From positions 284-64,283 of the forward strand of contig JAJDYY010000008.1 in assembly GCA_022824965.1 (NCBI GenBank): a stretch of 64,000 nt of DNA, written 5' to 3'. Under the pieces are notes generated by a model. It was given only the letters and a program-made list of their open reading frames with translations, was not told where the DNA came from and made no database searches. This document shows positions 683-16,066 of this stretch, in pieces. This DNA is from Gammaproteobacteria bacterium (lineage in GTDB: Bacteria; Pseudomonadota; Gammaproteobacteria; UBA4575). Numbering within the stretch: position 1 is the first letter of the stretch; every line of letters begins with the position of its first letter. The position numbers were made by a program, and so were the translations under genes.

Positions 683-736
683 ATGATCAATCGATTGGGG
701 ATTGAACGAGGATTCGAATTAGAACACTATTCACCG

Positions 737-1213
737 ATGGTTGCCACGCATGAACACTACCCAATGCTGCTGGCCTTCCTGCAGCTATTCTACCCTGCCC
801 TGTATGAACGGCTCGGCCCTTACTCGGAGAAGGCCGATATCGTCGGGGCCAACCTCATCAGCTCCAACAACACCAGTGCCTATCAGGCGGTCGTGTTCAG
901 TGAAGGCGTCATGAAGGACGGTGAGTCCTTTGAAATCTACGCGGGAAACGCTGCACTGACCATATACTCCTGGGACTGGCGCTGGGTGTTTGCCGTCAAG
1001 ATCCTGTTCCGCGGGGATACCATCTTTCCATTGAGATTCCAGCAAAAGGTCATTGCCCTGCCTACGGGAAAACGCCCGCTCACCGAGATCTTTTTCAAGA
1101 TCATCCAGCGCGAGTTCGAGGTGGTGCTTGAGAACATCCTGAAAACCTCCGTAGATGAACACACCTCCCTGCGGGAAAGCTATTCCCGGTACCTGGTGTC
1201 CGTGCACCTCTAG
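737..1213 (+). CDS. Hypothetical protein (~158 aa)
   Basis: ORF with strong GC3 bias (about 75% G/C at third positions) in the + frame. The opposite-strand ORF 785..1384 has a Gly/Arg/His-rich composition typical of antisense ORFs. Start uncertain (ATG 737, or ATG 683 abutting the tRNA). No recognisable family. Confidence 0.5.
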   Translation: MVATHEHYPMLLAFLQLFYPALYERLGPYSEKADIVGANLISSNNTSAYQAVVFSEGVMKDGESFEIYAGNAALTIYSWDWRWVFAVKILFRGDTIFPLRFQQKVIALPTGKRPLTEIFFKIIQREFEVVLENILKTSVDEHTSLRESYSRYLVSVHL

Positions 1214-1797
1214 GCTGCGGGCCGCAATTTCCTCTTCAGGTAGAACGTTAGCCTGAATCCGAGAAGAACGGCCAAGATGGCCGCATAGATGGCAGGCTCT
1301 CTGGTGTCGATCTTGACCATCCACCAGAAATGCAAGACCCCCAGCATGGCCACCACGTAGACCAGGCGATGCAGTTGTATCCATCGGTGCTGCAACACCT
1401 CGACCATCCTGTCGGTCGAAGTCGCTGCCAGCGGCAGCAGCAGGACAAAGGCGGTGAACCCCACGGTGATGAAGGGCCGGTCGATGACGTCCTCGATGAT
1501 CTCGGCGAGGTCAAAAAACTTGTCCAGGGTGACATACAGCGACAGGTGTACGCACACGTAAAAGAAGGTGAACAGGCCCAGCATCCTTCTGTAGCGTGCA
1601 AGCGCGTGCCAGCCCGTCAGTTTTCTGAGCGGCGAGATCGCAAGAGTGATCAGCAAAAACCGCAGTGCCCAGTCACCGGCCCTTCGGGTGACGGCCTCGA
1701 TGGGGTTCGCCCCCAGTGAATCCGTAAAAAACCAGTAGCCGTAGCACACCAGCGGCACCAGGCAAGCGGCAAACACCAGGGGCTTGCCAAGGCGCAT
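1210..1797 (-). CDS. msrQ: Protein-methionine-sulfoxide reductase heme-binding subunit MsrQ (YedZ)
   Basis: Six-TM ferric-reductase-like protein with conserved His. Lies immediately downstream of msrP. Start chosen at MRLGKPLVF (ATG 1797), just after the msrP stop at 1811. Confidence 0.85.
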   Translation of the reverse strand: MRLGKPLVFAACLVPLVCYGYWFFTDSLGANPIEAVTRRAGDWALRFLLITLAISPLRKLTGWHALARYRRMLGLFTFFYVCVHLSLYVTLDKFFDLAEIIEDVIDRPFITVGFTAFVLLLPLAATSTDRMVEVLQHRWIQLHRLVYVVAMLGVLHFWWMVKIDTREPAIYAAILAVLLGFRLTFYLKRKLRPAA

Positions 1798-1810
1798 GAG
1801 AAGGTCCTGC

Positions 1811-2776
1811 TCAGAAATGCTTTTTGAGGTCCATGCCTGCATACAGACCGGCCACCTGCTCCGCATAGCCGTTGAACGGTAGGGTCTTTCTTTTCAGGAT
1901 CTCCCCGATCCTGCGCTCCCTTTTCTGGCTCCAGCGCGGGTGGTTCACCGCAGGATTGACGTTCGAGTAGAAACCGTACTCCCGTGGAGCCGACTGATTC
2001 CAGCTGGTCGCAGGCTCCGATTGTGTGAAGCGTATGCGAACGATCGACTTGATGCTCTTGAAACCGTATTTCCAAGGCACGACCAGGCGCAGCGGCGCAC
2101 CGTTTTGATTCGGCAACTCTTTGCCGTACAGCCCCACGGCCAATATGGTCAGGGGATGCATGGCCTCATCCATTCTCAGGCCTTCACGGTACGGCCAGTC
2201 CAGGACCGAGCGCCTCTGGCCCGGCAGGTTCTTCGGATCGTACAGGGTGAAGAACTGCACGTACTTGGCCTTGGACGTGGGCTCGAAACGTTTCAGCACC
2301 GGTCCCAGTTCAACGCCGACCCACGGGATGACCATCGACCAGGCCTCCACACAGCGCAGGCGGTAGATCCGCTCTTCGAGCCTCGGGGCAGGAATGAAGT
2401 CTTCCAGGTCATAGTCGCCCGGCTTGTCGCATTCGCCTTCCACCCGGATGCTCCACGGTTCGGTAACGAGGCGGTCCGCATTACGCTTCGGGTCGCCTTT
2501 TTTCAGGCCGAGCTCATAGAAGTTGTTGTAGCTCGTGATGTCCTCGAACGAGTTGAGTTCCTCGGCCGTCGAAAATACGCTTTTTTCGACATCCCCGATG
2601 CTGATGGCAGCACCTGCAGGTTGTGGCCACAGGGAGGATGCCGGAAGCATGGAAGCCCCTGCCAGGGCGGCAGTGCCCTGCATGAACTTTCGTCGTGCGA
2701 TGTAAAGCGATTCATCGGTGACCTGGGATTCGCGAACATCGCAAGCCCGGGTGGTTTTCAGCAACATACTCGGCAA
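1811..2776 (-). CDS. msrP: Protein-methionine-sulfoxide reductase catalytic subunit MsrP (YedY), TAT-exported molybdoenzyme
   Basis: Near full-length similarity to E. coli MsrP ([21 protein letters not shown] motifs). Twin-arginine signal [14 protein letters not shown]. Confidence 0.92.
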
Positions 2777-2991
2777 ATCCTTTCAGAGTTTCCGGTCAAC
2801 GGGGTACGAGGGATATCATTCACGCAATCCTTGCTTCTACAGCGGATGCAAGTCGATTGCAAGCCAGCCGGTTTTGCAGTGCAAATACCTGTGCACCGGA
2901 TCCCGGGTACTCCATGCTCTATCAGACAGCGGTGCGGCTACCGGAGTTCAGTCCAAATAATGCTATGATTGGACATGCACAACTATTCGGG

Positions 2992-3312
2992 ATGGTGATG
3001 CAACAACAAAGATCGCCGTTAATCGCTTTTTTACTGGCCGTCTTGCTTGGACCACTGGGGTTCACCTACACGAACCTGATCGGTGGACTGCTTGCGATCA
3101 TCCTTGCCGTGGCCACCCTCTGGACCATCTTTGTTCCGATCGTCATCTGGATACTCTGTGCCCTGTTTGCACCGCTGATCGTGATGTCCTATAACAAGTC
3201 CGTGCGCACCCAGAAAAAGTACGTAGACAGCAAGCACGAGGAAATCATCAAGGCGATCCGCTCGGTGAATCTCCAGGCCGAAAACGAGGCCGACAAAAGC
3301 AAGCCTCTCTGA
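2992..3312 (+). CDS. Small inner-membrane protein, two predicted TM helices and a charged C-terminus
   Basis: ORF 2857..3312. Hydrophobic segments LIAFLLAVLLGPLGF and LLAIILAVATLWTIFVPIVIWILCALFAPLIV. Start ambiguous between ATG 2965, 2992 and 2998. Confidence 0.5.
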   Translation: MVMQQQRSPLIAFLLAVLLGPLGFTYTNLIGGLLAIILAVATLWTIFVPIVIWILCALFAPLIVMSYNKSVRTQKKYVDSKHEEIIKAIRSVNLQAENEADKSKPL

Positions 3313-3438
3313 GTCCCCTTCCTCCTGGCAAGACGTTGCTCCCGGACTGTCCCGTCCAGGATGACGGCGATGTGCTTACATCGTCAAGGGGATACCGGAT
3401 ATCGCCAGTGGCCTGGCTCCCAGGCACACCCAACGCAT

Positions 3439-3927
3439 TCAGTGTCCGTTCAGTTCGCCAGCGGAAATGCCTACCTGCACGATTCGCGCCTGGTCCACAC
3501 CTGCCACCCCGACATACTTGAACGGTGCGCCATCGAGTTCACGTTTTTCCAGGGCCTGGATAACCACGGATTCGCCGCCATGCAAAAGTGCGGCAAAGGG
3601 AGCCGCCTGCGTTCCACTGTTCGGATCGGTCGGAAAACTGAAGGATGTTCCGGGGATATTGGTGAATGCAATCTGGCCGTGCTCGTCACTGATCCAGAAT
3701 TCAGTAATCACCGAATGCTGTGCCACATCGGCCAGTACGGAATTGATGGCCTCCGCACTCATTCCTGCCTTGATGGCAGCATCGATGAAGTGGGCTGTCA
3801 GCTTGGCCTCTGCCACCATGTGCTTTGAGGCAGCGTCCTCTGCTGTCCCGGTGCTCTCGGCCATGAGTCCTCCATGCAGCATGAAGAGTATGCAAATACT
3901 CGAAATCGCCAGTATCTTACGCATCAC
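3439..3927 (-). CDS. Secreted/periplasmic hypothetical protein (162 aa) with N-terminal signal peptide
   Basis: N-terminus MMRKILAISSICILFMLHGGLMA is a typical Sec signal. No recognisable catalytic motif. Confidence 0.55.
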   Translation of the reverse strand: MMRKILAISSICILFMLHGGLMAESTGTAEDAASKHMVAEAKLTAHFIDAAIKAGMSAEAINSVLADVAQHSVITEFWISDEHGQIAFTNIPGTSFSFPTDPNSGTQAAPFAALLHGGESVVIQALEKRELDGAPFKYVGVAGVDQARIVQVGISAGELNGH

Positions 3928-4148
3928 GTATCTCCCAGATTTGCTTTTAAATCACTCCCTGCAGACTTGTCCCTGACAGACCGTATGATTTCGTTTCCAA
4001 ACCCTTCGAGAGGTAACTCTGCAGGCTGGCACAACTCTAGCACAGTCGTGTTTGCTGGCAACCCAATGAACACCTGACATATCACAAATTCTCTACACGC
4101 TGTTACACTTTGATACCGTTGCCCACGCAGACACTATGGTATGATTCT

Positions 4149-4205
4149 CCATAGGTCTCTCGCGTGAGCGGGGATTAGGTCTGGATAGGTCTGGATTAGT
4201 TAGTC
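4149..4205 (+). promoter_or_regulatory. Four phased direct repeats of GGAT(T)AGGTCT (10-11 bp periodicity), 25-80 bp upstream of the Cys-rich peptide gene
   Basis: Read directly: ccATAGGTCTct (4149-4160), GGATTAGGTCT (4172-4182), GGATAGGTCT (4183-4192), GGATTAGttagTC (4193-4205). The 11-mer GATAGGTCTGG (4184-4194) recurs on the minus strand at 9816-9826. Confidence 0.5.
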
Positions 4206-4230
4206 GTCCACTTACAGGAGGAAACTGATT

Positions 4231-4563
4231 ATGACTAAAGCCACACCTTCCAAGTTCGCCCGGGTCCTTTGTCATGCGGCAATTGTGGGCATCCTGTCCA
4301 TGTTGCTGGCGAGTACGGGATTTGCGACCTCAACCGTAGACAGCTGTACGACCGCATACAACAATAACGCCCCCGCAAGACACACTTGCACGCTTTATGA
4401 CGTCTCGGTCACCGGTTCAGGGAATTGCTTCATTCGTGCGACCTGCAACGGTGGAAGTTCTGGTAGTCCCAATACCAGCACCTCCATCGCCGAGAGCAGT
4501 ATGTCCTCCCTGAGAAATTGTAATGGTCGCTTGTCTACTTCCAACCCGTGCCCCGTCAACTGA
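4231..4563 (+). CDS. Small secreted cysteine-rich protein (110 aa precursor; ~78 aa mature with 6 Cys, Ser/Thr/Asn/Gly-rich)
   Basis: Good RBS (caggaggaaactgattATG). N-terminal Sec signal MTKATPSKFARVLCHAAIVGILSMLLASTGFA. Mature part has Cys at 7, 21, 34, 40, 65, 76. GC3 is lower (about 60%) than neighbouring core genes. Convergent with the ABC permease gene, stop-to-stop 6 bp. Confidence 0.65.
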   Translation: MTKATPSKFARVLCHAAIVGILSMLLASTGFATSTVDSCTTAYNNNAPARHTCTLYDVSVTGSGNCFIRATCNGGSSGSPNTSTSIAESSMSSLRNCNGRLSTSNPCPVN

Positions 4564-4568
4564 CCGGG

Positions 4569-5744
4569 CTAGTCTGATCTCAGGGCAGTGACCGGGTCGA
4601 GTTGTGCTGCCCGAACAGCGGGATGAAGCCCGAAGAACACACCGACGCAGCAGGCTACGACAAAGCCCATCAGCGCAGCGGCCAGGTTGACCAGGAACGT
4701 CCAGCCTGTAAACCAGCAGAACAGCCAGGTGCTCACGATGCCGAGCAGGATGCCGAATACACCGCCGAGCAGTGACAAGACAATGGATTCGGTCAGAAAC
4801 TGGCTCTGAATATCGACACGGCGGGCTCCCAGGGCCCGCCGTATCCCGATCTCCTTGCGCCGCTCGTTCACGGAGACCAGCATGATGTTCATTACGCCGA
4901 CCCCGCCGACAATCAGCGATATGCTGCCCACCGCAGCCAGCAACAGAGCGAATGTTTGCATCTGGCGTTCCATCTGTTCAATCAACTTCTGGGCGCTGCC
5001 CACACTGACCTCCAGGTTCGGCATCTTGCGGCGAAAGTAGTTCTTCACTTCCGACGCCACCACCGTGTGATGCACATCCGGCCTCATGCGGGCGGCTACC
5101 ATCCGCACGCCCTGGCGATGAAACATGCGCTGCGCCGTGGTGAGAGGAACCAGAATGGATCGGTTGGCCTCAAAATCCAGTCCAGATCCCGCTACCGGAA
5201 TGTCACGCAGCACGCCCACGATGGTGAAAATGTATCGATTCAGCCTGAGTGATTCACCCACCAGTCGTTCTGCGCCGGCATTTTGCAAAGCCGAGGCGAT
5301 CTCGGCTCCAATCACACAGTAGTAGTGGCGAAAATCCAGGTCCGAGATGGCCCGGCCCTGCTCCATCTGCAGCTTGTTGACTCTGGAAAACGATCCGGTC
5401 ACCCCCAGCGTGCTGGCGTGAGTGATGTTCTTACCGCCATAGATGACCTCGTTGTCGCCTTCGACCCAGGGGGCGACCGCCACGATGGAGGTGATCTCCT
5501 TTGGCAATTCCAGCGCTTCGACCACGGGGATCCGCTCATTTAAACCGACGGGCTTGATGGCGAGATAGTCGGTACCGAGTTCCTTGAACTGTTCCCGGGC
5601 CTGATGCTTGGCGATCGTTCCTACCGAGACCATGGCGATGACCGAGCCGATGCCGATGATGATGCCTAGCAACGCCAGCAGGCTGCGCTGCTTGGTCACG
5701 TACAGGCTGACAACCGCCTCCTTCAGGTTGACTTTCAGGCTCAA
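4569..5744 (-). CDS. ABC transporter permease, MacB/FtsX-type (DevC/LolC-like), 391 aa
   Basis: N-terminal TM helix, large periplasmic domain and C-terminal FtsX-type TM bundle. Overlaps the upstream ATPase gene by 4 nt. Confidence 0.85.
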   Translation of the reverse strand: MSLKVNLKEAVVSLYVTKQRSLLALLGIIIGIGSVIAMVSVGTIAKHQAREQFKELGTDYLAIKPVGLNERIPVVEALELPKEITSIVAVAPWVEGDNEVIYGGKNITHASTLGVTGSFSRVNKLQMEQGRAISDLDFRHYYCVIGAEIASALQNAGAERLVGESLRLNRYIFTIVGVLRDIPVAGSGLDFEANRSILVPLTTAQRMFHRQGVRMVAARMRPDVHHTVVASEVKNYFRRKMPNLEVSVGSAQKLIEQMERQMQTFALLLAAVGSISLIVGGVGVMNIMLVSVNERRKEIGIRRALGARRVDIQSQFLTESIVLSLLGGVFGILLGIVSTWLFCWFTGWTFLVNLAAALMGFVVACCVGVFFGLHPAVRAAQLDPVTALRSD

Positions 5745-6418
5745 CTTGCCCCCTCCTCATGCAGCAGACCGTTCTCGATACGGGTGCGCCGCCCGCACCG
5801 TTGAGCGATCTTTGCATCGTGGGTGATGACGATGAAGGTCGTCCCCTGATCCTGGTTCAGGCGCACGAACAGGTCCATGATGCCGTTGCCGGTATCCTGG
5901 TCAAGGGCACCGGTCGGCTCGTCCGCCAGCACGATGACCGGTCTTCCGACCAGCGCGCGGGCAATCGCAACCCGCTGTTGCTGTCCGCCGCTCATTTCGC
6001 CCGGCTTGTGGTCGAGATGACTCCCCATGCCCACCCGGTCCAGCGCTGCACCGGCCTGGTCTTTGATCTGCGCGTCTTCCATACCGCGGTACACCAGGGG
6101 AATACCCACGTTCTCCAAAGCTGTCAGGCGGGGCAGCAGGTGGAAGGACTGGAACACGAAGCCGATGCTGGCATTACGAATGGCTGAACGCCGGTCGTCC
6201 GACAGGGTCGAGATTTCGCGCTCCTCCAGTACGTACGAGCCGCTGCTGGGTGTATCGAGAAGGCCGATGATGTTCATCAGCGTGGATTTGCCGGACCCCG
6301 ATGCGCCCATGATCGAGACCAGGTCACCCTGATTCACTTCCAAGTCGACGCCGCGCAAGATCTGCACGGGCGTCGGGCCGACAACATAGGTTTTGTTTAT
6401 GTCCGTCAATCGAAGCAT
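5741..6418 (-). CDS. ABC transporter ATP-binding protein (MacB/LolD/DevA-type ATPase)
   Basis: Walker A GASGSGKST, signature LSGGQQQRVAIARAL, Walker B VLADEPTGALD, H-loop ITHD. Confidence 0.93.
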   Translation of the reverse strand: MLRLTDINKTYVVGPTPVQILRGVDLEVNQGDLVSIMGASGSGKSTLMNIIGLLDTPSSGSYVLEEREISTLSDDRRSAIRNASIGFVFQSFHLLPRLTALENVGIPLVYRGMEDAQIKDQAGAALDRVGMGSHLDHKPGEMSGGQQQRVAIARALVGRPVIVLADEPTGALDQDTGNGIMDLFVRLNQDQGTTFIVITHDAKIAQRCGRRTRIENGLLHEEGAS

Positions 6419-6448
6419 CTCATTCGCGGCCGTAGTTCACCTTCGTCA

Positions 6449-8275
6449 TCAGGTGCCGGGGACCATCACTTCGTCGCCGGCGCCGATACCGCGCACGATC
6501 TCCGCCTCATTCAATGTCGTCGCACCCACCTCCACCGGTACTTGCTGCATATCGCCCTGTTGTGTGCGAACGTGTAACCAGTATTGCCCGGGTTCGCCGT
6601 GCACCGCGGCTAGCGGCACGAGCAGAGCCGCGGGCTCATCCCGCACCACCACATCCACCTGGACGGACATGCCCAATCGCAGCCGTTGACGCTGTGCATC
6701 CGTGAGCCGGTCGAGCTCCGCTGTCACGTGGAACATGGGTACGCTGTCGGTATCAGCACGTTGCGACTGCGACGAGACCCACGTGATTTTTCCGTGCAGC
6801 TCGAGATCGGGAAAGGCATCGCCTCGTGCGGTGACCGGCTGTCCCGGTTGCAGCTTCACAATATCCACCTCGTCGACCAGACCGGCTACCGACAGACCGT
6901 CGATATCCCCGACGCTCAGCAGGTAATCCCCTTCGCTCACCGATTGCCCCGTTGCCAGCAGCTCGGCACTGCTTCCTTCCTGGTCGTCATTTCCGTTGCC
7001 GATTTCGGGTTGCAGAACGATCCCGAATACCGGCGCATGAACCACGGAGTCTGCCAGCGTCTTCTTCAGTTCCTGAATGCGCGAGGTTGCATTTTCCAGC
7101 TTGAGCCGGGCGACCTGCATCGTGTCCGTACCGGCCTTGGCCTGCACCGACTCCAGGTCCTGCAACGCCGCCTCGTAGTTCAGCCGTTGAGCTCCGTACT
7201 GACGTTTGGCGGCATCATGTTCCTGAGCGGAAATTATCCCCTGCTCAAGCAGCAGGGAGGTTTCTGACAGTTTGTCCTTGCGCACGTCTAGCTCCAGCTT
7301 GGCGCTTGCCACCGCACGCCGGACGCGACTCACCTCCAGGCTGTTTTCCCAGTCCTCGAGTTCCCTGACCCGCTCGCGTGCCTCAAGGAACTTGGCCTGC
7401 GCCTCCCGGTACTCGCGTTCGACTCCGGCAGTGTCCAGTTCAACCAGCGCCTGACCCGCCGCGACCTGCCCGCCGTACTCGAAAAGCCGCCGGGCCACCT
7501 TGCCGGTGGTCGGGCTGGTGATCCGTACTTCCTGGCGCGGTGCGAGCCTTCCGATAAAGGAAAGCGTTACGGTAAGCTTGCGGGGCGCGACGGTCAGGGT
7601 GGTCACCGTTTCTGCCATGCCCGAGTGCGTACCGGGCGTTACCGCAATTTCTTCTGTGAGTGCGGATCCCGTCTCATTCCAGACATACCCGGCAGCGCCC
7701 AGAAAAAGGAGGATGACGAAGGTACTGGCAACCAGCCGTACCGTCTGCACCTTCTTCAGGGCCGAATCCAGGGCCTCGTTCTTCTCCTCGATCTCGCGAT
7801 AGGCCTCGCGCAGCCTGGCATTCTGCTCTTTGGTCGACTCCACCAGCTGCTGTTCCGCCTTGCGCAGTGCCGCCACTTCAGTGATGTCGCGGAACACGGC
7901 GACGATGCCGATTTTCCGGGGCTCCCCGTCCTTGTAGTCGGCCAGGTACGATGTCGTCACGGCGAGAGACCGTTCCGTGCCGTCTTCAAGCTGCACCCCA
8001 ATCGTCGACTGGGAGCCGACAGCATCATCGTAGACGGCCGCCAGTACGGTGTCGTTGAAGTCTTCCAGACCCTTGATATTCAGAAAAACCTCGGCAAACA
8101 ACTTGCCCCGGATTTCAGCACGGGCCAGCCCCAGCAGCTTCGCGGCCGCAGGATTGAAGATGCCGATACGGGCGTCGGAGTCGACGGTCATGACTCCTTC
8201 ACTCATGCTGTCGAGCACGTTAAGGCGGAGCAGGGAATCCCGGTCCACGGAAGGAGAAGGAGAGGCACCGGTCAT
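6449..8275 (-). CDS. HlyD-family membrane fusion protein (periplasmic adaptor) with an N-terminal cytoplasmic PAS domain, 608 aa
   Basis: Residues ~15-135 have PAS hallmarks (GVMTVDSDARIGIFNPAAAKLLGLARAEIRGK ... IVAVFRDITEVAALRKAEQQL). These are followed by a coiled-coil, one TM helix (LVASTFVILLFLGAAGYVW), then a long HlyD-type domain with barrel-sandwich and beta-barrel regions. The stop overlaps the TolC-like gene start region by 4 nt. Confidence 0.8.
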   Translation of the reverse strand: MTGASPSPSVDRDSLLRLNVLDSMSEGVMTVDSDARIGIFNPAAAKLLGLARAEIRGKLFAEVFLNIKGLEDFNDTVLAAVYDDAVGSQSTIGVQLEDGTERSLAVTTSYLADYKDGEPRKIGIVAVFRDITEVAALRKAEQQLVESTKEQNARLREAYREIEEKNEALDSALKKVQTVRLVASTFVILLFLGAAGYVWNETGSALTEEIAVTPGTHSGMAETVTTLTVAPRKLTVTLSFIGRLAPRQEVRITSPTTGKVARRLFEYGGQVAAGQALVELDTAGVEREYREAQAKFLEARERVRELEDWENSLEVSRVRRAVASAKLELDVRKDKLSETSLLLEQGIISAQEHDAAKRQYGAQRLNYEAALQDLESVQAKAGTDTMQVARLKLENATSRIQELKKTLADSVVHAPVFGIVLQPEIGNGNDDQEGSSAELLATGQSVSEGDYLLSVGDIDGLSVAGLVDEVDIVKLQPGQPVTARGDAFPDLELHGKITWVSSQSQRADTDSVPMFHVTAELDRLTDAQRQRLRLGMSVQVDVVVRDEPAALLVPLAAVHGEPGQYWLHVRTQQGDMQQVPVEVGATTLNEAEIVRGIGAGDEVMVPGT

Positions 8276-9858
8276 CGTTCGCCCCCCCTGACATCATGCG
8301 GCAGGTCGATCCCGATATTCCAGGTATTCAGCGTTGTCCCCTGTATCCGGTCCAGTGCGGTCAGCGCATTAAGGTACGCGACGACCGCGTCGTTTTCATT
8401 GTTCTGGCTTCTGACCAGGTCATCCTCAAACTCAACCAGCCGGAAGTTTGTGGTCAGGCCTGCGCTCAGTCTTATCTGCTCGATCTCGAGCTTTCGCTCG
8501 GCAAGTGCCCTCGCCTGTCGGGCCAGTTCGACGCGCCGATACCGGACCCCGACATCACGCACTGCGGCCCGAACCTCGATATCGATCGACTGGCGAAGCT
8601 CCGCCAGGCGAATCCGCGACTTCTGCAAGGAGAACCTTGCCCTGCGCTGGTCGCGCCGCAAGCTGTCCGCGTTCACTCCCAAAGGGATGTTCAAGCTGAG
8701 CCCGACGCGGTAATCGTCATTAAACCGGCTGTAAGCATCCGACAGCGAACGGCCACTGTTCATCAGGTTTGCCGAGGAGGTGAGGTTCAGCTCCCACCAA
8801 CGCGCATTGTCGGCAACCAGCAGGGCAGTATCCGCGTTTTCGATGATTAACCGCGACTGCAGGTAGTCCGGGCGGTGTTCAAGCGCCAACTCCACCGCGT
8901 GGTCCGCGTTGTGCGTTGCCGGGTCGACGTGCAGCGTCTCCGTTGGCTGGATCAGAGTCTGGCTGTCGATCTCCAGGATATCGATCAGGGCAAGGCGGGC
9001 ATCGTCCAGCGCATCGTAGGCTTCCGTCAGGCTCAACTCCCGTTCTGCGATATTCGCCTCGGTCTGCAAGATATCGTGCTTGGCCATCCTGCCGGTATCG
9101 ATCAGGACCCGGTTCACTTCCAGCTGGTCTCGGGCCCGTTGCAGCGAGCGTTCGCTGATCTCCACCGCACGCATGGACCGGATCACGTGGCGGTACGCAT
9201 AGATGGTCTGGGTCACGATCCCGATGACCGCCGACTTGAAGCCGAGGACGCCGATCTGTTCCTCGCGCCGGGCGGTCACGAGGTCGGCGGTACCGACCGC
9301 GGTGCCGCCACCCTTCAGCAACGGCTGGGCGAACTCCAGCGTAACGAACTGATCTGCACTGTCCTGGTTGGTCACCCGGTTGTTTGCACTCAGGCTCAGT
9401 GTCCCTCCGGTGGGGATCCGCAGGGTAATTTTGGGCGAGATACCCAGCGAGACTTCATCCCAGTCGAGCGGGGAATCGGTCGAGTCGTTGTCAAAGGACA
9501 TCTCGAGCGATGGCGTGAGCCTGAACTCGTCTTCGGAGTCCTGCAGGAAAAGTTTCTGCGAGAGCCGGTCGAGGCGACCCGTGGCAAGGTCCCGGTTGTT
9601 CTGAACGGCCAGCAGGATGGATTCGGCCAGGGTCAGGTCCCGTTTCAGCGAGGTGCCTGGAGCCCGCTCTGCAGCGACGGGTAAGCCCGCCAGAAATGCC
9701 GTCAGGACGAGGAAGATGCACAGTTTCCATGTGATGAGACGACCCGCTCCCGACCAGCCATACGCCCCTCGCTTTCTCGTGCGACGAGGCCCGTGGTTGA
9801 TCGCTGCGGAGAGAACCAGACCTATCAGCTTTGGGATGACAGCTCTGCGCACGTTCAA
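8272..9858 (-). CDS. TolC-like outer membrane efflux protein (OEP family)
   Basis: Two repeats of the TolC-type helical/beta organisation. Signal-peptide-like segment KLCIFLVLTAFLAGLPVAA. The annotated start is TTG at 9858, giving a ~45 aa extension before the signal peptide, so the true start is uncertain. Confidence 0.8.
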   Translation of the reverse strand: MNVRRAVIPKLIGLVLSAAINHGPRRTRKRGAYGWSGAGRLITWKLCIFLVLTAFLAGLPVAAERAPGTSLKRDLTLAESILLAVQNNRDLATGRLDRLSQKLFLQDSEDEFRLTPSLEMSFDNDSTDSPLDWDEVSLGISPKITLRIPTGGTLSLSANNRVTNQDSADQFVTLEFAQPLLKGGGTAVGTADLVTARREEQIGVLGFKSAVIGIVTQTIYAYRHVIRSMRAVEISERSLQRARDQLEVNRVLIDTGRMAKHDILQTEANIAERELSLTEAYDALDDARLALIDILEIDSQTLIQPTETLHVDPATHNADHAVELALEHRPDYLQSRLIIENADTALLVADNARWWELNLTSSANLMNSGRSLSDAYSRFNDDYRVGLSLNIPLGVNADSLRRDQRRARFSLQKSRIRLAELRQSIDIEVRAAVRDVGVRYRRVELARQARALAERKLEIEQIRLSAGLTTNFRLVEFEDDLVRSQNNENDAVVAYLNALTALDRIQGTTLNTWNIGIDLPHDVRGGER

Positions 9859-10123
9859 TGAGTTACAAGATATTTATAAGAACTATCTGCTGCAGTACCT
9901 CTGATTCATCTTCTGACCAGGCGTAATGCCCGTGAGACCCATGGATGGACTGTGTGAATTGCTGATAGTACCCCAATTCAGGGCATGGAGTCCTGTGTAC
10001 GATCAGGAGGAGAAAACCGGGGTTGGAGTCATAAATATGAACCAAGAGCCGCCCTACCGGATACGCCATGTCCTGTCACCCGATGAGTACGGGGGATTTA
10101 TAGACCGCAGGACCCGCAACAGG

Positions 10124-12127
10124 CTACAGCGCCAGATTGATCCCCACATAGGCCTGGAGTGGCATGGCCGGAAAGTAGCGGTCGGTGCCGAAGGCATAGT
10201 CGGCGCGATCGGCGTAGCGCTCATCGAACAGATTGATGACCCGGGCAAACAGGTCGATATGCTCGGTCAGCCTGTAGCCGCCCCGCCAGTTGAGCACGAC
10301 GTGACCCTCGTACTTGGCCGTGTTGGCAGCGTTGGTGTAGTACTCACCCACCCTGTTCAGTTCAAACTCGGAATACCAGCGCTCACCTGGCTCGTAGCGC
10401 CAGCGGGCATGGGTGAGCCAGCGCGGTGCCGAATCCATCAGGTTGCCTTTTTCGATCCGCTCGCCGCGCCCGGCATCACGGGTGAAATCGTACTTGTGTA
10501 CGGCATAGCCGATGGCAAGGCCCAGGGCATGGTCGCCCAGATGCCAGTCGCCGGAAAACTCGAGCCCGGTGGAACGGGTCTTGCCGTCGCTGACGTTGAA
10601 ACCACTGGCGTCACGGAAAATGAAGTCGCGGGTCCACTGGCCGAATGCCGACACCGACCAGGCGCCGCTTCGAAAGCCAGCCTCCACCGACACCAGGCGT
10701 TCGCTGTCCAGGTCCGCCACGGTTTGCCCCTGCTGCAGGCGGTAGAGTTCGGTGGCTTGCGGCGGTCTAAATCCGCTGCTGAGCATCACATAGCTGGAGC
10801 GGTGAGCACCAAAATCGCGCTCAACCCCTAAGCGCCCGGCCACTTCAGTGAACCGGTCTTCCCGGGAGGCCGGACGGGTGTACAGGCAGCCGCCGAAGCC
10901 GCAGGGCGTGCCGTCGTCGCGGCTGTTGCCCGTCAGGTGGCGGTTTTCATAATCGTAGCGCAGGTGCTCAAGGCGCAGGCTGTGCAACAGGCGCAGCTCC
11001 CCGCCCAAGGCTCGGCTCAGATCGTAAAAGCCTGCAGCCATGACCGAATCGACGTCGTAGTCGTAGTGGCGCCCGGCAGGGCGAGTGGCCACTAGGAAGG
11101 CCGACCCGCTCGTCGGTCGATCCTGAATCTCGAGCAGACTGCCCTGCATCGCCTCAGCTTGCGCACCGAATTGTCCGGCCCAGGCCCCGGCTTCAAACTC
11201 CTGGCGGACCAGCATGCCTCCGCTGGTCTGCTCATTGGTCTCGGTCGGCTGTCCAGGCAGGAAGTGCTGCAGAAACTCCATGTGCGAGCGGCGCAGGTAA
11301 GCAGAAACTTGAGTTGGCCCGCGCTGCCAGTGGCTGGCTGCGCGCAAGGACCACGCGTCCCGATAGGCCTCCGGGTAGGGGTTGGAGCGGCGCAGTTCAC
11401 GGTCCTTGTAGGCTTCAAAGCCCTGCACGTAGCCGCCGGTCTCCTGGTTGAGGTGGGTGGCGCTCAGGGTATTGCGTACCCGCCAGGCGCCGAGGTCGGT
11501 AGCATGGACCAGGGAGAACTTCTGCTGGTCATACCCCGTGGCATCCCGGTAACCGTCGGTCTGGCTTGCGTAGGCACTCAGGCCGACGTAGTGCCTGCCA
11601 GCGTGCCCGCCGGATGTGACTCGGACCTGGTGGTAGCCGTAGGAGCCGCTCTCCAGGCTCAGGCCGGCACCTTCAGGATTGGCCGTGAGCACATTGATCG
11701 CCCCGTGCATTGCATTGCCGCCCAGCACGGCACTTGAGGGTCCACGCCAGACCTCGATGCCCCCTGCCTGCTCGCCATTGACCTCGAAGAGGTTGTTGAT
11801 GTTGCAAAACCCCGCGGGGCGAATGGGCACACCGTCCTCAAGGTACAGAAATTTTCCACAGGCTCCGGGTCCGGTAAAGACCGCCGAGCGGATGGCGGTC
11901 AGATGCTCCTGGCCGGACCCCCGGGTCACCCAGACGCTTGGCGCCCGGCTCAGGGCTTCGTGAATATGGTTGTAACGGATCTCCGCCAGTACATCCCCAT
12001 CGATGCGGCTGGCACTGCCTGCAGTGCCGAGGCGCTCGCCGATGGTTCCTGTGACCACGATCTCCCCAATGGGATCCGCGGCGGATAGACTCGCCGGGAT
12101 CACCGCCAGCAGCAACAACCCCGCCAA
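10124..12127 (-). CDS. TonB-dependent outer membrane receptor
   Basis: N-terminal signal, TonB-box-like EIVVTGT, plug-domain motifs (IRYNHIHEALSRAPSVWV, LYLEDGVPIRPAGFCN), and a long beta-barrel region. Start is TTG at 12127. The C-terminus ends ...AYVGINLAL rather than with the usual terminal aromatic residue. Confidence 0.8.
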   Translation of the reverse strand: MAGLLLLAVIPASLSAADPIGEIVVTGTIGERLGTAGSASRIDGDVLAEIRYNHIHEALSRAPSVWVTRGSGQEHLTAIRSAVFTGPGACGKFLYLEDGVPIRPAGFCNINNLFEVNGEQAGGIEVWRGPSSAVLGGNAMHGAINVLTANPEGAGLSLESGSYGYHQVRVTSGGHAGRHYVGLSAYASQTDGYRDATGYDQQKFSLVHATDLGAWRVRNTLSATHLNQETGGYVQGFEAYKDRELRRSNPYPEAYRDAWSLRAASHWQRGPTQVSAYLRRSHMEFLQHFLPGQPTETNEQTSGGMLVRQEFEAGAWAGQFGAQAEAMQGSLLEIQDRPTSGSAFLVATRPAGRHYDYDVDSVMAAGFYDLSRALGGELRLLHSLRLEHLRYDYENRHLTGNSRDDGTPCGFGGCLYTRPASREDRFTEVAGRLGVERDFGAHRSSYVMLSSGFRPPQATELYRLQQGQTVADLDSERLVSVEAGFRSGAWSVSAFGQWTRDFIFRDASGFNVSDGKTRSTGLEFSGDWHLGDHALGLAIGYAVHKYDFTRDAGRGERIEKGNLMDSAPRWLTHARWRYEPGERWYSEFELNRVGEYYTNAANTAKYEGHVVLNWRGGYRLTEHIDLFARVINLFDERYADRADYAFGTDRYFPAMPLQAYVGINLAL

Positions 12128-12250
12128 CCTCCGTGGCTCGCCCTGGAGGCAACGGCTTATCGCCAGAAAAAGGGAAACCAGAATCAGTTGGACAATCCGC
12201 CTTCCGTAGGACAGTCGCTCACTCGCAGTGGCGACAAGTCAGTGAAAAAA

Positions 12251-12327
12251 TGGCGCGCCCGGAGAGATTCGAACTCCCGACCGCCTGGTTCGTAGCCAGG
12301 TACTCTATCCAACTGAGCTACGGGCGC
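12251..12327 (-). tRNA. tRNA-Arg, anticodon ACG (77 nt)
   Basis: Reverse complement reads GCGCCCGTAGCTCAGTTGGATAGAGTACCTGGCTACGAACCAGGCGGTCGGGAGTTCGAATCTCTCCGGGCGCGCCA. Differs from the 606-682 copy at 3 positions, including anticodon position 34. Confidence 0.9.
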
Positions 12328-12486
12328 GTACAGCATCAAATAGCAGCGCAGTATAACTTATTCCATGATCAAATTACTTCGTACGAAAAAGCCAGTTCCT
12401 AATCATGAAAACGGGGAATACAGCCGATGGGTTGATACAAGTTACACCGATTAGCAGGTATTCTATATACTCTGCTTGTTCTGTGC

Positions 12487-12579
12487 GGAGAGGTGCCAGA
12501 GTGGTCGAATGGGGCTCCCTGCTAAGGAGTTGTCTGAGTAATCCTTGGACCGTGGGTTCGAATCCCACTCTCTCCGCCA
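12487..12579 (+). tRNA. tRNA-Ser, anticodon GCT (93 nt, long variable arm)
   Basis: GGAGAGGTGCCAGAGTGGTCGAATGG...CTGCTAA anticodon loop...long variable arm...GGTTCGAATCC...CTCTCCGCCA. Confidence 0.9.
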
Positions 12580-12725
12580 ACAAGCCAATTTAGGCGATCA
12601 AATTCACCGAAAGCCGAACACTACTTGCAATCGAGAACCCGCCGGATGCGAAACGTATCTGCCCGCATGGCACCCGCCATGACGGCGAGCGCACCCGGGG
12701 AAGGAAATCCTGCTTCAGCAGGCAG

Positions 12726-14144
12726 TCACTCGTCTCTTTCCGGCATGACGACGAATTCAGGGTAGGCCTCGATGCCAAGTTCGGCGACATCCTGACCCAG
12801 GTCTTCCACCGCGGGGGACACACGTGCGCCGATCGTCTTGTCGATCACCAGCCAGGTGATCAGGGATACCGTGAACACGAAGGCTCCGACTGCCACGATG
12901 CCCGTCACTTGCACCAGCAGGTTGCCTCCTGCGGCAATGCACACCGCGAGCGTTCCCCAGATGCCTGCGAACAGGTGCGCCGGAACGGCACCGACCACAT
13001 CGTCGATCTTCAGGCTCTCCATGACCTTCAGCCCAAATACGATCACCAGGCCGCCCACCGCACCGATAAACACGGCCCAGTGGTGATGGACGATGTCGGG
13101 TCCTGCCGTGATGGCCACGAGCCCGCCGATGGCGCCGTTGAGTGCGGCGAGAAGATCCACCCGCCCGAGTATCGGCCGGGACAGCGCAATCGCCGTCATG
13201 ACACCCGCGGCAGCAGCGAGATTGGTGTTCGCCAGGATGTTGCTGAGCGCTATGGCATCGACGGCACCGCCCAGGGCCAGTTGCGATCCGCCGTTAAAAC
13301 CGAACCAGCCGAGCCAGAGGATAAAAACCCCGAGAGTGACGACCGGCACATTCGATGGAGGAGTCACCTTGACACTGCCATCGGCACGAAATTTCCCTGT
13401 GCGGGCACCCACGACCAGTGCCCCAGCCAGCGCCGCCCAGCCGCCGGTCGAGTGCACGATCGTCGAACCCGCAAAATCCTGAAAGCCCATTTCGGAAAGC
13501 CAGCCTCCGCCCCAGGTCCAGGAACCGATGATCGGATACAGGACCGCGGTCAGGATCAGGATGAACAGGAAAAACGACCACAGTTTCACACGCTCGGCCA
13601 GTGTCCCGGATACGATCGAGGCCGTGGTCGCCACGAACACCATCTGGAAGAACCAGTCCGACATGGTGGAGTAACCGTTGCTGATGACCGCAGGGGCCAC
13701 CGCTTCATCACCGCCCAGCAGTGCGATCTCATCCCCGGTCGTGCCGTACATAAACTGGAGCGAGCCGGACCAGCCGCCGGGTTCGACTCCGACATACATG
13801 AGGTTGTAGCCGACGAAGAAGAAGGCCAGGCCGGCAATGGAATAAAGCCCGATGTTCTTCAGGCAGATCACCGAGGCATTCTTGGTACGCACCGAGCCCG
13901 ACTCGAGCATCGTGAAGCCCGCGCACATCCACATCACCAGTGCACCCCAGATCAAAAACGAGAAGCTGTTCAGTACGAATTGCTGTTCCTCGCCAAGGGC
14001 TGCGTAAGCGCTGGATGAGCACAGGATCAGCAACAGGGCCAGGACTGCAAGGACGGGCTTGCGCGTAAACCCCTTGCTCCCGCTAGCAATGATCCGACAG
14101 GACGGGACTGGGGTCTGCTTGGCAATCTTGGGAAGTGCGTACAT
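12726..14144 (-). CDS. amt: Ammonium transporter (Amt family)
   Basis: 11-TM Amt/MEP signature throughout (e.g. GGWLSEMGFQDFAGSTIVH, LGWFGFNGGS). Start chosen at MYALPK, giving a signal peptide. The long ORF extends to 14264. Confidence 0.88.
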   Translation of the reverse strand: MYALPKIAKQTPVPSCRIIASGSKGFTRKPVLAVLALLLILCSSSAYAALGEEQQFVLNSFSFLIWGALVMWMCAGFTMLESGSVRTKNASVICLKNIGLYSIAGLAFFFVGYNLMYVGVEPGGWSGSLQFMYGTTGDEIALLGGDEAVAPAVISNGYSTMSDWFFQMVFVATTASIVSGTLAERVKLWSFFLFILILTAVLYPIIGSWTWGGGWLSEMGFQDFAGSTIVHSTGGWAALAGALVVGARTGKFRADGSVKVTPPSNVPVVTLGVFILWLGWFGFNGGSQLALGGAVDAIALSNILANTNLAAAAGVMTAIALSRPILGRVDLLAALNGAIGGLVAITAGPDIVHHHWAVFIGAVGGLVIVFGLKVMESLKIDDVVGAVPAHLFAGIWGTLAVCIAAGGNLLVQVTGIVAVGAFVFTVSLITWLVIDKTIGARVSPAVEDLGQDVAELGIEAYPEFVVMPERDE

Positions 14145-14368
14145 GCCGGGCTCCTGCAGTTCGGGGTGTTGCGGTGCAGAATAGCATGCCGGGCAGGCTA
14201 TGAGAATTGCAGACCGGCACAGACTCGCCCGGCCAAATGGGCTGTGCGCATGCTCGAATCGCAAGCCTGAAGGCGCGGTAACGCCTTTAAAATCGTGGTG
14301 TTCGCAGTGAATCAGAGGGTGTGTAGACCCATCGGTGTGTGGGACCCCGTCAGGTCCCGGGTCCGTTA

Positions 14369-14560
14369 CTAGTCCGCTGAATCGCCTGCCTGTGTTTTTT
14401 CGTGCCGGATCCTCTCGTAAATTTCCTCACGGTGCACTGCGACATCTCGGGGTGCATTGACACCTATTCGAACCTGGTTGCCTTTCACGCCCAACACAGT
14501 GACTGTGACATCATCTCCGATCATCAGCGTCTCGCCGACTCTCCTGGTCAAAATCAGCAT
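14369..14560 (-). CDS. csrA: Carbon storage regulator CsrA/RsmA
   Basis: [51 protein letters not shown] is near-identical to canonical CsrA. Confidence 0.97.
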
Positions 14561-14712
14561 TCCCGTGTCTCCTTAATAGTCCATTTTGTTATTTGCCCGC
14601 TCCCTGCGAATCACGACATCTCCCTTGCTGCGATCTCCCGGGGCGGCTACTCCGGTTATTTCCCTACCAAAGCCGTTATGGTGTTTGCATTATGCGCTAT
14701 TGATGTTCTCCT

Positions 14713-15936
14713 CTATTTTTCCTGATCCAGTTCAAATGCTTCATGCAATACGCGTACTCCAAGCTCCAGATATTTCTCATCGACCACGACGGAGATCTTG
14801 ATCTCCGAAGTGGAAATCATCCGGATATTGATCTTCTCCTGCGCCAACGCTGTAAACATTCTACTCGCAATTCCCGCATGGGACCTCATCCCGACGCCCA
14901 CGAGCGACAGCTTCACGATGTGCGGATCGCCACCGACTTCACCGCCTCCCAGTTCAACCACTGTATTTTCAAGAACTTCCATGCCTCTCTCATAGTCATT
15001 TCTATGCACGGTGAAAGTGAAATCCGTGGTCCCGTCCGAACCCACGTTCTGTACGATCATGTCCACTTCGATGTTCTTGTCGGCGATCGGCCCCAGGATA
15101 TGGGCGGCCACACCCGGTCGGTCCGGCACCCCCTTGACCGTCAACTGCGCCTCGTCTCGATTGAAGGCTATGCCTGATACAAGCGGGTCTTCCATGCTCT
15201 CGTCCTCCAGGGTTATCAGGGTACCCGGCCCCTCTGAAAAAGTGGAAAGTACACGCAGTGGGACATCATACTTGCCGGCAAATTCCACTGCACGAATCTG
15301 CAGCACCTTGGAACCGAGGCTGGCCATCTCCAGCATCTCTTCGAAGGTCACGCTGTCGAGGCGCCTCGCATTGGGCTCGACCCGCGGGTCGGTCGTGTAG
15401 ACCCCGTTCACATCGGTGTAGATCTGGCATTCATCGGCCTTGATCGCCGCAGCCACCGCCACGGCCGTGGTGTCCGAGCCCCCGCGTCCCAGCGTGGTGA
15501 TGTTGCCCTCGTCGTCCACGCCCTGAAAGCCTGCGACCACCACCACTTTCCCTGCATCCAGCGAACGGTGCAGAAGCCCGGCGTCGATATTCTGGATCCG
15601 CGCCTTGTTGAACTTGTTGTCGGTGCGGATATTGAGCTGTGCACCCGTGGTAGAAATTGCGGCACAGTTGCGCCGCTGCAGGGCCATCGCCAGCAGCGCG
15701 ATGGTCACCTGCTCCCCGGTAGAAAGCAGTACATCAAGCTCACGCCCGTGGGCCACCTGACCCTGCACCTCGTTGGCCAGCCCCATCAGGCGGTTGGTTT
15801 CGCCGCTCATGGCCGAGACGACCACGACCACCTTGTGTCCCTGGTTCTTGCTCGCAATGACCTTCTCGGCCACGGCCTCGATGCGTTCGATCGAGCCGAC
15901 CGAGGTGCCGCCATACTTTTGTACTATCAGGGCCAT
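14713..15936 (-). CDS. lysC: Aspartate kinase
   Basis: [14 protein letters not shown] kinase motif and C-terminal ACT domains. Confidence 0.93.
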
Positions 15937-16066
15937 GGGCTTAATTTCCGTTCGCTCGTGGTGGAGGGATCCTGATGAATCTTAGCACGGGCGGCTGCAT
16001 ATCCCCTGTACAGAGGCAGGATCACTGTCCGCCCCAAAGTTCCGGGGCGCACCGCGTTGTGAACCA

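Follow-up and report, generated by a model that had tools for sequence, protein, structure and literature searches.

A six-cysteine secreted mini-protein as the probable cargo of a PAS-adaptor MacB-type pump

Within a 64,000-nucleotide stretch of gammaproteobacterial DNA (lineage UBA4575; assembly GCA_022824965.1, contig JAJDYY010000008.1, positions 284 to 64,283 of the forward strand; the window in what follows), a short gene for a secreted six-cysteine protein sits beside a complete MacB-type tripartite pump whose periplasmic adaptor carries a PAS domain. Here, we propose that this 110-residue protein is probably the cargo of a dedicated two-step secretion route. The precursor would cross the inner membrane through Sec, with removal of its signal peptide, and the 78-residue domain would fold in the periplasm with three disulfides, there to be captured by the periplasmic domain of the MacB-type permease. 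ATP hydrolysis on a separate ATPase would then drive, by mechanotransmission, its expulsion via the adaptor and a TolC-like channel, while an intracellular signal probably acts on pump activity through the cytoplasmic PAS domain of the adaptor. Genomic association argues for this proposal, seen both for the peptide's own rare family, named family A here, and for other small secreted proteins beside pumps of the same kind.

The architecture of the pump is complete, with permease, ATPase, adaptor and outer-membrane factor encoded contiguously on the reverse strand. The 391-residue permease (4569..5744) is of the MacB type (Type VII ATP-binding cassette, ABC), matching MacB_PCD at 7.4e-36 (residues 21-235) and FtsX at 3.8e-20; it has four transmembrane (TM) segments, at about residues 19-46, 261-293, 315-347 and 345-380, with a periplasmic core domain (approximately residues 47-260) between the first and the second. 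Its gene is overlapped over 4 nt by that of the ABC ATPase (225 residues; 5741..6418; ABC_tran 2.2e-33), which resembles LolD and the nucleotide-binding domain (NBD) of MacB and whose best NCBIfam matches, LolD, YbbA and the MacB NBD, all fall under the equivalog cut-offs. Separated from this by 30 nt is the gene for the 608-residue periplasmic adaptor of the HlyD/membrane fusion protein type (6449..8275), matched by the Pfam models PAS, PAS_4, HlyD_3 and HlyD_D23 and by TIGR01730 (HlyD/RND_mfp) at 125.7 bits, against a cut-off of 94.9. The adaptor consists of the PAS domain (residues 19-135), a coiled segment, a single TM segment (about 176-200) and the periplasmic HlyD part, and because the PAS domain precedes the only TM segment we place it in the cytoplasm. 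The last gene, again with a 4-nt overlap, encodes a TolC-like outer-membrane factor of 528 residues in its maximal open reading frame (ORF; 8272..9858), the next in-frame start not coming before codon 70; this protein matches OEP in two stretches (1.9e-26), and TIGR01844 and TIGR01845 at scores under both cut-offs. An earlier reading of this DNA, made from its letters alone (the sequence-only reading), had placed these genes correctly, as the ORF map and domain scans bear out, and had predicted a MacB periplasmic domain, HlyD and OEP families and a PAS-fused adaptor, all of which hidden Markov models (HMMs) recover; it had also described a four-gene overlapping operon, which is right as to the operon and, as to the overlaps, for two of the three junctions.

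Convergent with the permease gene is the peptide gene itself (4231..4563, forward strand), the two stop codons lying 5 nt apart (4564-4568) rather than the 6 bp given previously. A strong ribosome-binding site, AGGAGG (4216..4221), precedes the ATG by 9 nt. The precursor has the classic n/h/c layout of a signal peptide, with K3, K8 and R11 in the n-region, a single hydrophobic stretch at about residues 8-32 and a small-residue site GFA/TS; the cleavage site was set heuristically, giving a predicted signal of residues 1-32 (4231-4326) and a 78-residue mature domain (4327-4560) with the N-terminus TSTVDSC. Seven cysteines are encoded, one in the signal peptide and six in the mature part. Homologues differ in the signal peptide but retain the mature part: an alignment of 12 family A sequences, copies from the fetched loci included, shows no change at any of the six cysteines, nor at L62 and G67 within a C-terminal motif 'L.NC.G.L'. 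Pairwise ratios of non-synonymous to synonymous substitution (dN/dS) for the mature part of five homologues range from 0.07 to 0.47, with one pair undefined through saturation of dS, and the gene is under purifying selection. An AlphaFold2 (AF2) model from a nine-sequence input is an alpha+beta fold with a mean local confidence (pLDDT) of 84.9 and a template-modelling score (pTM) of 0.69. Together, the ribosome-binding site, signal layout, homologues, dN/dS, invariant cysteines and model establish the gene as real, and invariant cysteines in a compact fold predicted with confidence suggest structural disulfides.

The sequence-only reading had found the peptide to resemble no recognised family, and this stands, there being no match in Pfam, NCBIfam, PHROG or the sequences of the PDB. 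Family A is extremely rare: 5.8 billion protein clusters and 1.84 billion representatives yield fewer than 15 members, as assessed by one profile search of the representatives and two word-indexed searches of the clusters; the family profile, when compared with the 5.8-billion-cluster collection, gave one further member. We rejected a lipoprotein, as the precursor has no lipobox; a ribosomally synthesised and post-translationally modified peptide, as the cluster holds no modifying enzyme; and a phage or defence origin, as there is no PHROG match. Membership of the cyanovirin-N homology (CVNH) lectins was likewise rejected: none of the 12 family A sequences matches the CVNH model in Pfam at E values up to 10, alignment of the family with cyanovirin-N (CV-N) by hhalign is not significant (E 0.41), and Foldseek returned no match for the model. 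The peptide would cover just one half of a CVNH domain, its N-terminal helix being additional and its disulfide count different. CVNH is a weak fold lead only, and on this weak resemblance an extracellular role in carbohydrate or surface binding may tentatively be suggested. The family A profile also weakly matches 15 cysteine-containing module repeats ('...CNDGYENPIPARITCQASGKWEEATC...') of a 1110-residue protein (P0122), in appearance a sushi/complement control protein (CCP)-type repeat protein, where the match probably reflects the cysteine pattern and not homology.

The window's pump belongs to a subclass, the PAS-adaptor pumps, in which genes for a MacB-type permease, an ATPase and an OEP protein accompany that of an adaptor composed of an N-terminal PAS domain, one TM segment and a periplasmic HlyD part. 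Full-length relatives of the PAS-fused adaptor form 110 clusters (clustering at 90% identity), reaching down to 32% identity to the query, and come from sources named as Gammaproteobacteria, Nitrospinota, Alphaproteobacteria, Endothiovibrio and Thioalkalivibrio; the pumps themselves occur in Gamma- and Alphaproteobacteria, Thermodesulfobacteriota, Binatia, Nitrospinota and Spirochaetia, as metagenome-assembled genomes (MAGs). Scans of genomes and metagenomes together with contig look-ups yielded 17 independent pump lineages with usable flanks, to which the metagenome scan contributed only two loci. The four-gene set, with its MacB-type permease, is present in 17 of 17, in several orders, and no gene besides these four is common to all. 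On plasmids in PLSDB only adaptors without the PAS part were found, and a search of the accessible literature for PAS-fused adaptors or MacB-type cargo arrays found nothing specific and no paper on this pump type.

For the linkage of peptide and pump we built a family A HMM without the test sequences and ran it on all stop-to-stop ORFs of the fetched loci. Family A members or their decayed remnants lie beside PAS-adaptor pumps in seven of the 17 lineages, the window counted, and do so in four gene arrangements. Four of the other six are gammaproteobacterial. One (L021, adaptor 71% identical) has an intact 112-residue gene, convergent and 5 nt after the permease gene; another (L031, 72%) has three tandem copies about 0.2-1.6 kb from the pump operon; and two (L007 and L020, 68% and 77%) keep truncated or frame-shifted remnants at the same site next to an intact pump. 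The remaining two are alphaproteobacterial: in L012 (adaptor 54%) a 139-residue member lies 69 nt after the adaptor gene (E 8.5e-7), and in L018 (35%) a 410-residue cysteine-rich secreted protein with about 30 cysteines carries two C-terminal copies of the domain (E 6e-11), and 13 nt separate the end of its gene from the OEP gene. Downstream of the L018 pump, at a distance of about 0.8 kb, is a gene for a DsbA/ScsC-like thiol-disulfide oxidoreductase (8824-9573). Counted from the side of the peptide, there are 12 independent family A loci: seven beside the pump, three on contigs too short to show whether a pump is near (L005, L023, L029) and two (L024, L030) with no pump within the available flank. 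As judged from these genomes, the association is far beyond chance, a rare family recurring beside the pumps, and the functional link between the peptide and a MacB-type pump that the sequence-only reading had put forward gains the backing of comparative genomics.

Further support comes from what occupies the same positions in other lineages. An all-against-all comparison of ORFs, confirmed by tblastn, identified further flanking families, and by a manual tally about 14 of the 17 lineages have a small secreted-protein neighbour placed as family A is. Family B, proteins of about 160 residues with a twin-arginine-like 'TRRALLAG' signal ('KTRRALLAGLLGL'), a motif 'DSATDDGGGKIRVSWSL' and no Pfam match, forms arrays of eight tandem copies upstream of the OEP gene in each of L009 (2738-7664) and L025 (2561-7578), and has two copies between the adaptor and ATPase genes in L007 and one directly upstream of the OEP gene in L031. 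Family C, with 'MTxERHR' N-termini and repeated domains, is present as a tandem array of seven in front of the ATPase gene in L010, with two copies in L012 and a single one in L011, and further pumps are flanked by families D, E and F. One lineage (L017) has two Calx-beta proteins of about 175-180 residues (7396-7923 and 13869-14411), both ending 'TFGE'. In the cultured carriers, Thioalkalivibrio (sp. GCA_000378305.1) and Endothiovibrio (E. diazotrophicus), a single small secreted protein is encoded upstream of the OEP gene; the small signal-peptide proteins next to the pump map to 5888-6280, 13249-13659 and 13707-14114 in L033 and to 6041-6328 in L034. Apart from the Calx-beta proteins, no tested neighbour of the pumps has a significant Pfam match. 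Small secreted proteins of at least five unrelated families, the peptide's among them, lie beside such pumps. As the neighbours vary, often in multiple copies, while the machine is conserved, this is the pattern expected of variable cargo, and the PAS-adaptor pumps are a widespread, uncharacterised subclass that seems to take it.

These comparisons also bear on how far the linkage can be explained otherwise. We regard it as rather improbable that there is no functional link at all, the pump merely sharing with the peptide, through common descent or co-transfer, a variable region that collects genes for small secreted proteins. Such an account would sit well with the convergent orientation, with the third-position G+C content (GC3) of the small genes (0.61-0.66, against 0.73-0.77 for the pump genes), with the tRNA genes that bracket the region and the TIR gene inserted nearby in a relative, both described below, and with those family A members that have no linked pump. 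It does not readily explain why a family of fewer than 15 recurs beside one pump type across Gamma- and Alphaproteobacteria, with adaptors of 35-77% identity, in arrangements that include positions inside the operon or directly abutting it, nor why families B and C, independently, behave alike.

Genomic linkage is, however, silent on the kind of link, and the peptide might be a periplasmic accessory, regulatory or substrate-delivery partner of the pump, which would in truth transport a small molecule or lipid. Partners of efflux components exist, for example a lipoprotein partner of TolC (PMC13082787), and pumps are retained after peptide loss; a subunit should nonetheless stay with its machine, whereas here at least five unrelated families interchange, in tandem arrays of up to eight, and we think this explanation improbable as well. 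Also unlikely, in our estimation, is that the peptide is an antagonistic, bacteriocin-like toxin and the pump its exporter, a self-protection device or both, on the lines of the FtsX-type ABC systems for lactococcin 972 and AS-48. The peptide is small, disulfide-rich and Sec-dependent, polymorphic copies stand in tandem in L031 and L029, decayed peptide genes are kept by orphan pumps, conjugation genes adjoin the L021 locus, tRNA genes flank the window cluster, and the ATPase matches the lactococcin-972 ABC model TIGR03608. That match (192.5 bits) is under the cut-off of 254.85, though, the peptide matches neither the lactococcin-972 family nor any other bacteriocin family, no small immunity-like gene is paired with it, and the alternative neighbours (families B, C, E and F, and the Calx-beta group) have the look of beta-sandwich or adhesin-type proteins rather than of toxins. 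Rates of change have been read on both sides: no gene of the locus evolves faster than that of the peptide, which is 85% identical to its counterpart in a near-identical relative (L001) where the pump genes reach 93-98%. A toxin would lead one to expect this, but with dN/dS below 0.5 there is no diversifying selection. In the same comparison 21 of the 25 substitutions in the permease fall in its periplasmic domain (p = 0.002), and the peptide's faster evolution and these changes are together consistent with a cargo relation without being diagnostic of it.

Several observations weigh against the peptide being pump cargo. The cargo relation itself is inferred; the ORFs in the GC-rich MAG loci were called in this analysis, and their signal peptides were assigned heuristically. 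In the window the peptide and pump genes are convergent and not co-transcribed, and a clustering of permease changes in the periplasmic domain would follow equally from the stronger constraint on TM segments. Two family A members, P0124 (10 kb of flank) and P0126, are distant from every pump, three lineages (L013, L014, L015) have no adjacent small secreted protein, and families B (about 14 kDa) and C (25-50 kDa) exceed any proven MacB cargo in size. Lastly, where the peptide gene has decayed (L007, L020) the pump is intact, and a pump so retained is not dependent on this peptide.

What is known of the transporter class fits a reading of secretion in two steps. MacB-type transporters have no transmembrane path for their substrates, which are taken from the periplasm (PMC5985334). 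Their proven cargoes include STII, which is Sec-delivered, DsbA-oxidised and exported by MacAB-TolC (PMC5985334; PMC8277102), and dispersin, the Aat cargo of about 10 kDa (PMC5985334; PMC7943197). The peptide's mature part, disulfide-rich, about 8 kDa and preceded by a Sec signal, is within this range, which favours a two-step route. As for regulation, pump activity is reported for DevB and MacA to be under the control of the adaptor's cytoplasmic N-terminus (PMC5985334), which makes a regulatory PAS fusion plausible; that the PAS domain serves as a regulatory input is suggested by this analogy only.

Extending the argument to the subclass as a whole, we tentatively suggest, with somewhat less conviction than for the single peptide, that PAS-adaptor pumps may constitute an unrecognised and broad secretion pathway, which would take folded small proteins, delivered by Sec or the twin-arginine (Tat) route, from the periplasm to the outside, with interchangeable cargo cassettes and gating by PAS; the six-cysteine protein would be one cargo and would found a new domain family, extracellular and possibly binding glycans. 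Protein export is known for no more than two or three MacB-type pumps, namely MacAB with STII and Aat/Cex with dispersin and CexE, and substrate recognition and the size limit of the class are open questions (PMC5985334). If the suggestion is true, there would be many natural pump-cargo pairs, spanning disulfide-rich mini-proteins, proteins with twin-arginine signals and multi-domain repeat proteins, in which to study how a mechanotransmission ABC transporter recognises and expels folded proteins, and secretion would be regulated across the membrane in a new way, by a PAS domain in the cytoplasm that belongs to a periplasmic adaptor. Cargo families without a significant Pfam match are candidates for new extracellular functions, and since cultured Thioalkalivibrio and Endothiovibrio strains carry the pump, the idea can be put to experiment.

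Upstream of the peptide gene, a perfect tandem pair of the 10-bp repeat AGGTCTGGAT (4177..4196, forward strand; 35-54 nt 5' of the start codon) is kept in two relatives (L001 and L004) and is, speculatively, a candidate binding site for a regulator; at the equivalent site L005 has a different tandem repeat, of about 30 nt in two copies. A ribosome-binding motif, GGAG(G/A)AAAC(T/C)GAT..ATG, is common to the family A members of L005 and L031. An N-terminus 'M(M)IKTTLLKPVPVAGLSAGR' with the ribosome-binding context 'GGAGAAAACTGATG' is found in L005 (345-), L031 (8982-, 9545- and 10001-), L020 (about 13830) and L007 (12111-), its carriers being family A genes, the L020 remnant and, in L007, the ORF preceding a family B gene; the impression is of one 5' cassette that has been linked to cargo bodies of different kinds. 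On the 906-bp contig L005, copies of about 60 nt (56-120 and 709-771) flank the peptide homologue P0003 on both sides and resemble the 3' end of a MacB-type permease gene (ending '...ALRSD' and a stop), which suggests either a tandem duplication of the peptide gene with the permease tail or an assembly artefact.

The TonB-dependent receptor of the window (10124..12127, reverse strand; Plug and TonB_dep_Rec barrel) lies, as first described, 265 nt upstream of the OEP gene in the same orientation, and on it hangs the remaining alternative, raised by the sequence-only reading, in which the peptide is a metal-binding or signalling molecule that the pump exports and the receptor takes up again. PvdRT-OpmQ offers a precedent as a MacB-type siderophore exporter (PMC5985334), and six cysteines could in principle bind metal. 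Yet by tblastn the receptor adjoins the pump in just two cases, the window and L001, and is absent from the other 16 lineages; the next closest, L031, whose OEP protein is 80% identical, lacks it too, and the gene tables of L020, L021, L031, L033 and L034 contain no Plug or TonB_dep_Rec gene. The receptor is under the cut-off of every specific receptor family in NCBIfam, and the invariant cysteines, in their compact predicted fold, point to structural disulfides. As a lineage-specific neighbour the receptor removes the sole support of the metallophore idea, which we now consider very improbable.

The surrounding segment is itself of mixed composition. Two tRNA-Arg genes in the same orientation (606-682 and 12251-12327), 96% identical (74/77 nt) and with anticodons TCG and ACG, bracket 11.6 kb (683-12250) that hold MsrPQ, a 151-residue membrane protein, a 162-residue protein, the peptide, the pump and the receptor; the end first assigned to the cluster, 12327, is that of the second tRNA-Arg gene, and a tRNA-Ser gene follows at 12487-12579. 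Beyond the bracketed segment are core genes (aspartokinase, alaS, recX, recA, mutS), and the segment may be an island or a recombination hotspot. The cluster had been called unrelated to the surrounding core genes, which is overstated: the pump genes have a core-like GC3, and lower values are confined to the small genes (the peptide and the 162- and 151-residue proteins); for the peptide, the early estimate of about 60% agrees with the computed 0.61. The 162-residue signal-peptide protein (3439-3927, reverse strand; GC3 0.62) is encoded divergently from the peptide, matches nothing in Pfam, NCBIfam or PHROG, is 97% conserved in L001-L003 and is cut to about 27 codons in L004; its single-sequence AF2 model is unusable (pLDDT 39), and it could be a second cargo or unrelated. 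In L001, the window's closest relative, a gene with a TIR domain (CAP12-PCTIR_TIR; 13494-14318) is inserted between the receptor and an ammonium transporter, a position at which the window's ORF list has no equivalent, and AlpA/HTH genes stand at the left end.

Around the pumps of other lineages we noted a 1834-residue Calx-beta protein (L031, 13027-18531) and a very large signal-peptide protein of more than 2000 residues (L014, 6550-12633). The contig and isolate labels of L001-L006, L008, L012, L013, L018, L022, L023 and L031 (KELL22-1, ROBB21-1, PANK22-1, LUOR22-1, COS4_bin_31, jk18x...) may stem from studies of marine sponge microbiomes, for which a literature search gave no confirmation. 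In L021 (MAG COS4_bin_31) conjugative-transfer genes (DUF1525, TraU, TraG_N; 3457-8182) come directly before the pump-peptide module, and after it, divergent from the peptide gene, is the gene for a 786-residue regulator that joins GAF, PAS, HisKA, HATPase, receiver and OmpR parts in one polypeptide (14374-16734); a hybrid GAF-PAS-kinase-receiver-OmpR regulator stands beside the peptide gene or its remnant only in L021, L007 and L020 and is absent from the window. In one Thioalkalivibrio locus (L033) an Lnt-type apolipoprotein N-acyltransferase gene (11627-13162, reverse strand) converges on the permease gene with an overlap of about 22 nt and is followed by two paralogous small secreted proteins; it recalls the AatD of the Aat system but may simply be the housekeeping lnt. 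The large subunit of ribonucleotide reductase in another Thioalkalivibrio locus (L032, 1686-4946, 1086 residues) has an intein with a LAGLIDADG endonuclease, which that of L033 (2810-4945, 711 residues) is without.

Compared with known systems, the pump is close to MacAB-TolC of E. coli in its Type VII ABC permease with a periplasmic core, its HlyD-type adaptor and its TolC-type channel, and the putative route here is that of STII, a small Sec-delivered protein that acquires disulfides in the periplasm and is expelled from there (PMC5985334). It differs from MacB proper in that ATPase and permease are separate, NF007826 scoring 178 bits for the permease and 229 bits for the ATPase against a cut-off of 966, and from MacAB-TolC in the cytoplasmic PAS domain of the adaptor and a channel gene within the operon; the putative 78-residue, three-disulfide cargo has no relation to STII, and its gene neighbours those of the pump. 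Aat (AatPABCD) likewise has a dedicated MacB/Lol-like permease, an ATPase, an adaptor and a TolC-like protein encoded together, and carries out the two-step secretion of a Sec-dependent protein of about 10 kDa that is often encoded within 1 kb (PMC7943197). We rejected membership of Aat for want of an AatD-like gene and an N-terminal glycine: tblastn with Lnt finds no AatD-like (Lnt/CN-hydrolase) gene in the window or the pump loci, except in the Thioalkalivibrio loci L032 and L033, and Pfam finds no CN_hydrolase domain in the genes of the window cluster, while the peptide's predicted mature N-terminus is Thr where Aat cargo requires Gly, with no similarity to Aap or CexE. Aat is also without a PAS-fused adaptor, and the candidates for cargo beside the present pumps vary and often form arrays.

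PvdRT-OpmQ with FpvA, of pyoverdine export and uptake, is similar as a MacB-type tripartite system with a periplasmic substrate and a TonB-dependent receptor in its genomic setting; in the present case there are no biosynthetic genes, the receptor linkage is not conserved and the candidate substrate is ribosomally made. In DevBCA-HgdD, too, the MacB-type permease and the ATPase are separate, and export there requires the cytoplasmic N-terminus of the adaptor (PMC5985334). Its substrate is a glycolipid, however, DevB is without PAS, and the window proteins score 38.5 against a cut-off of 129 for DevB and 18.9 against 290 for DevC. In Type I secretion, an HlyB-type exporter handles cargo that has no Sec signal and bears a C-terminal secretion signal; in contrast to HlyB/HlyD/TolC, the permease here is of the FtsX/MacB type and not ABC_membrane, and the peptide has an N-terminal signal. 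The window proteins fall short of the equivalog cut-offs of MacB, MacA, DevB, DevC and LolCE alike. New here are the fusion of PAS to the adaptor, the family of the peptide and a cargo that is apparently varied, in a system that resembles both MacAB-TolC/STII and Aat and belongs to neither.

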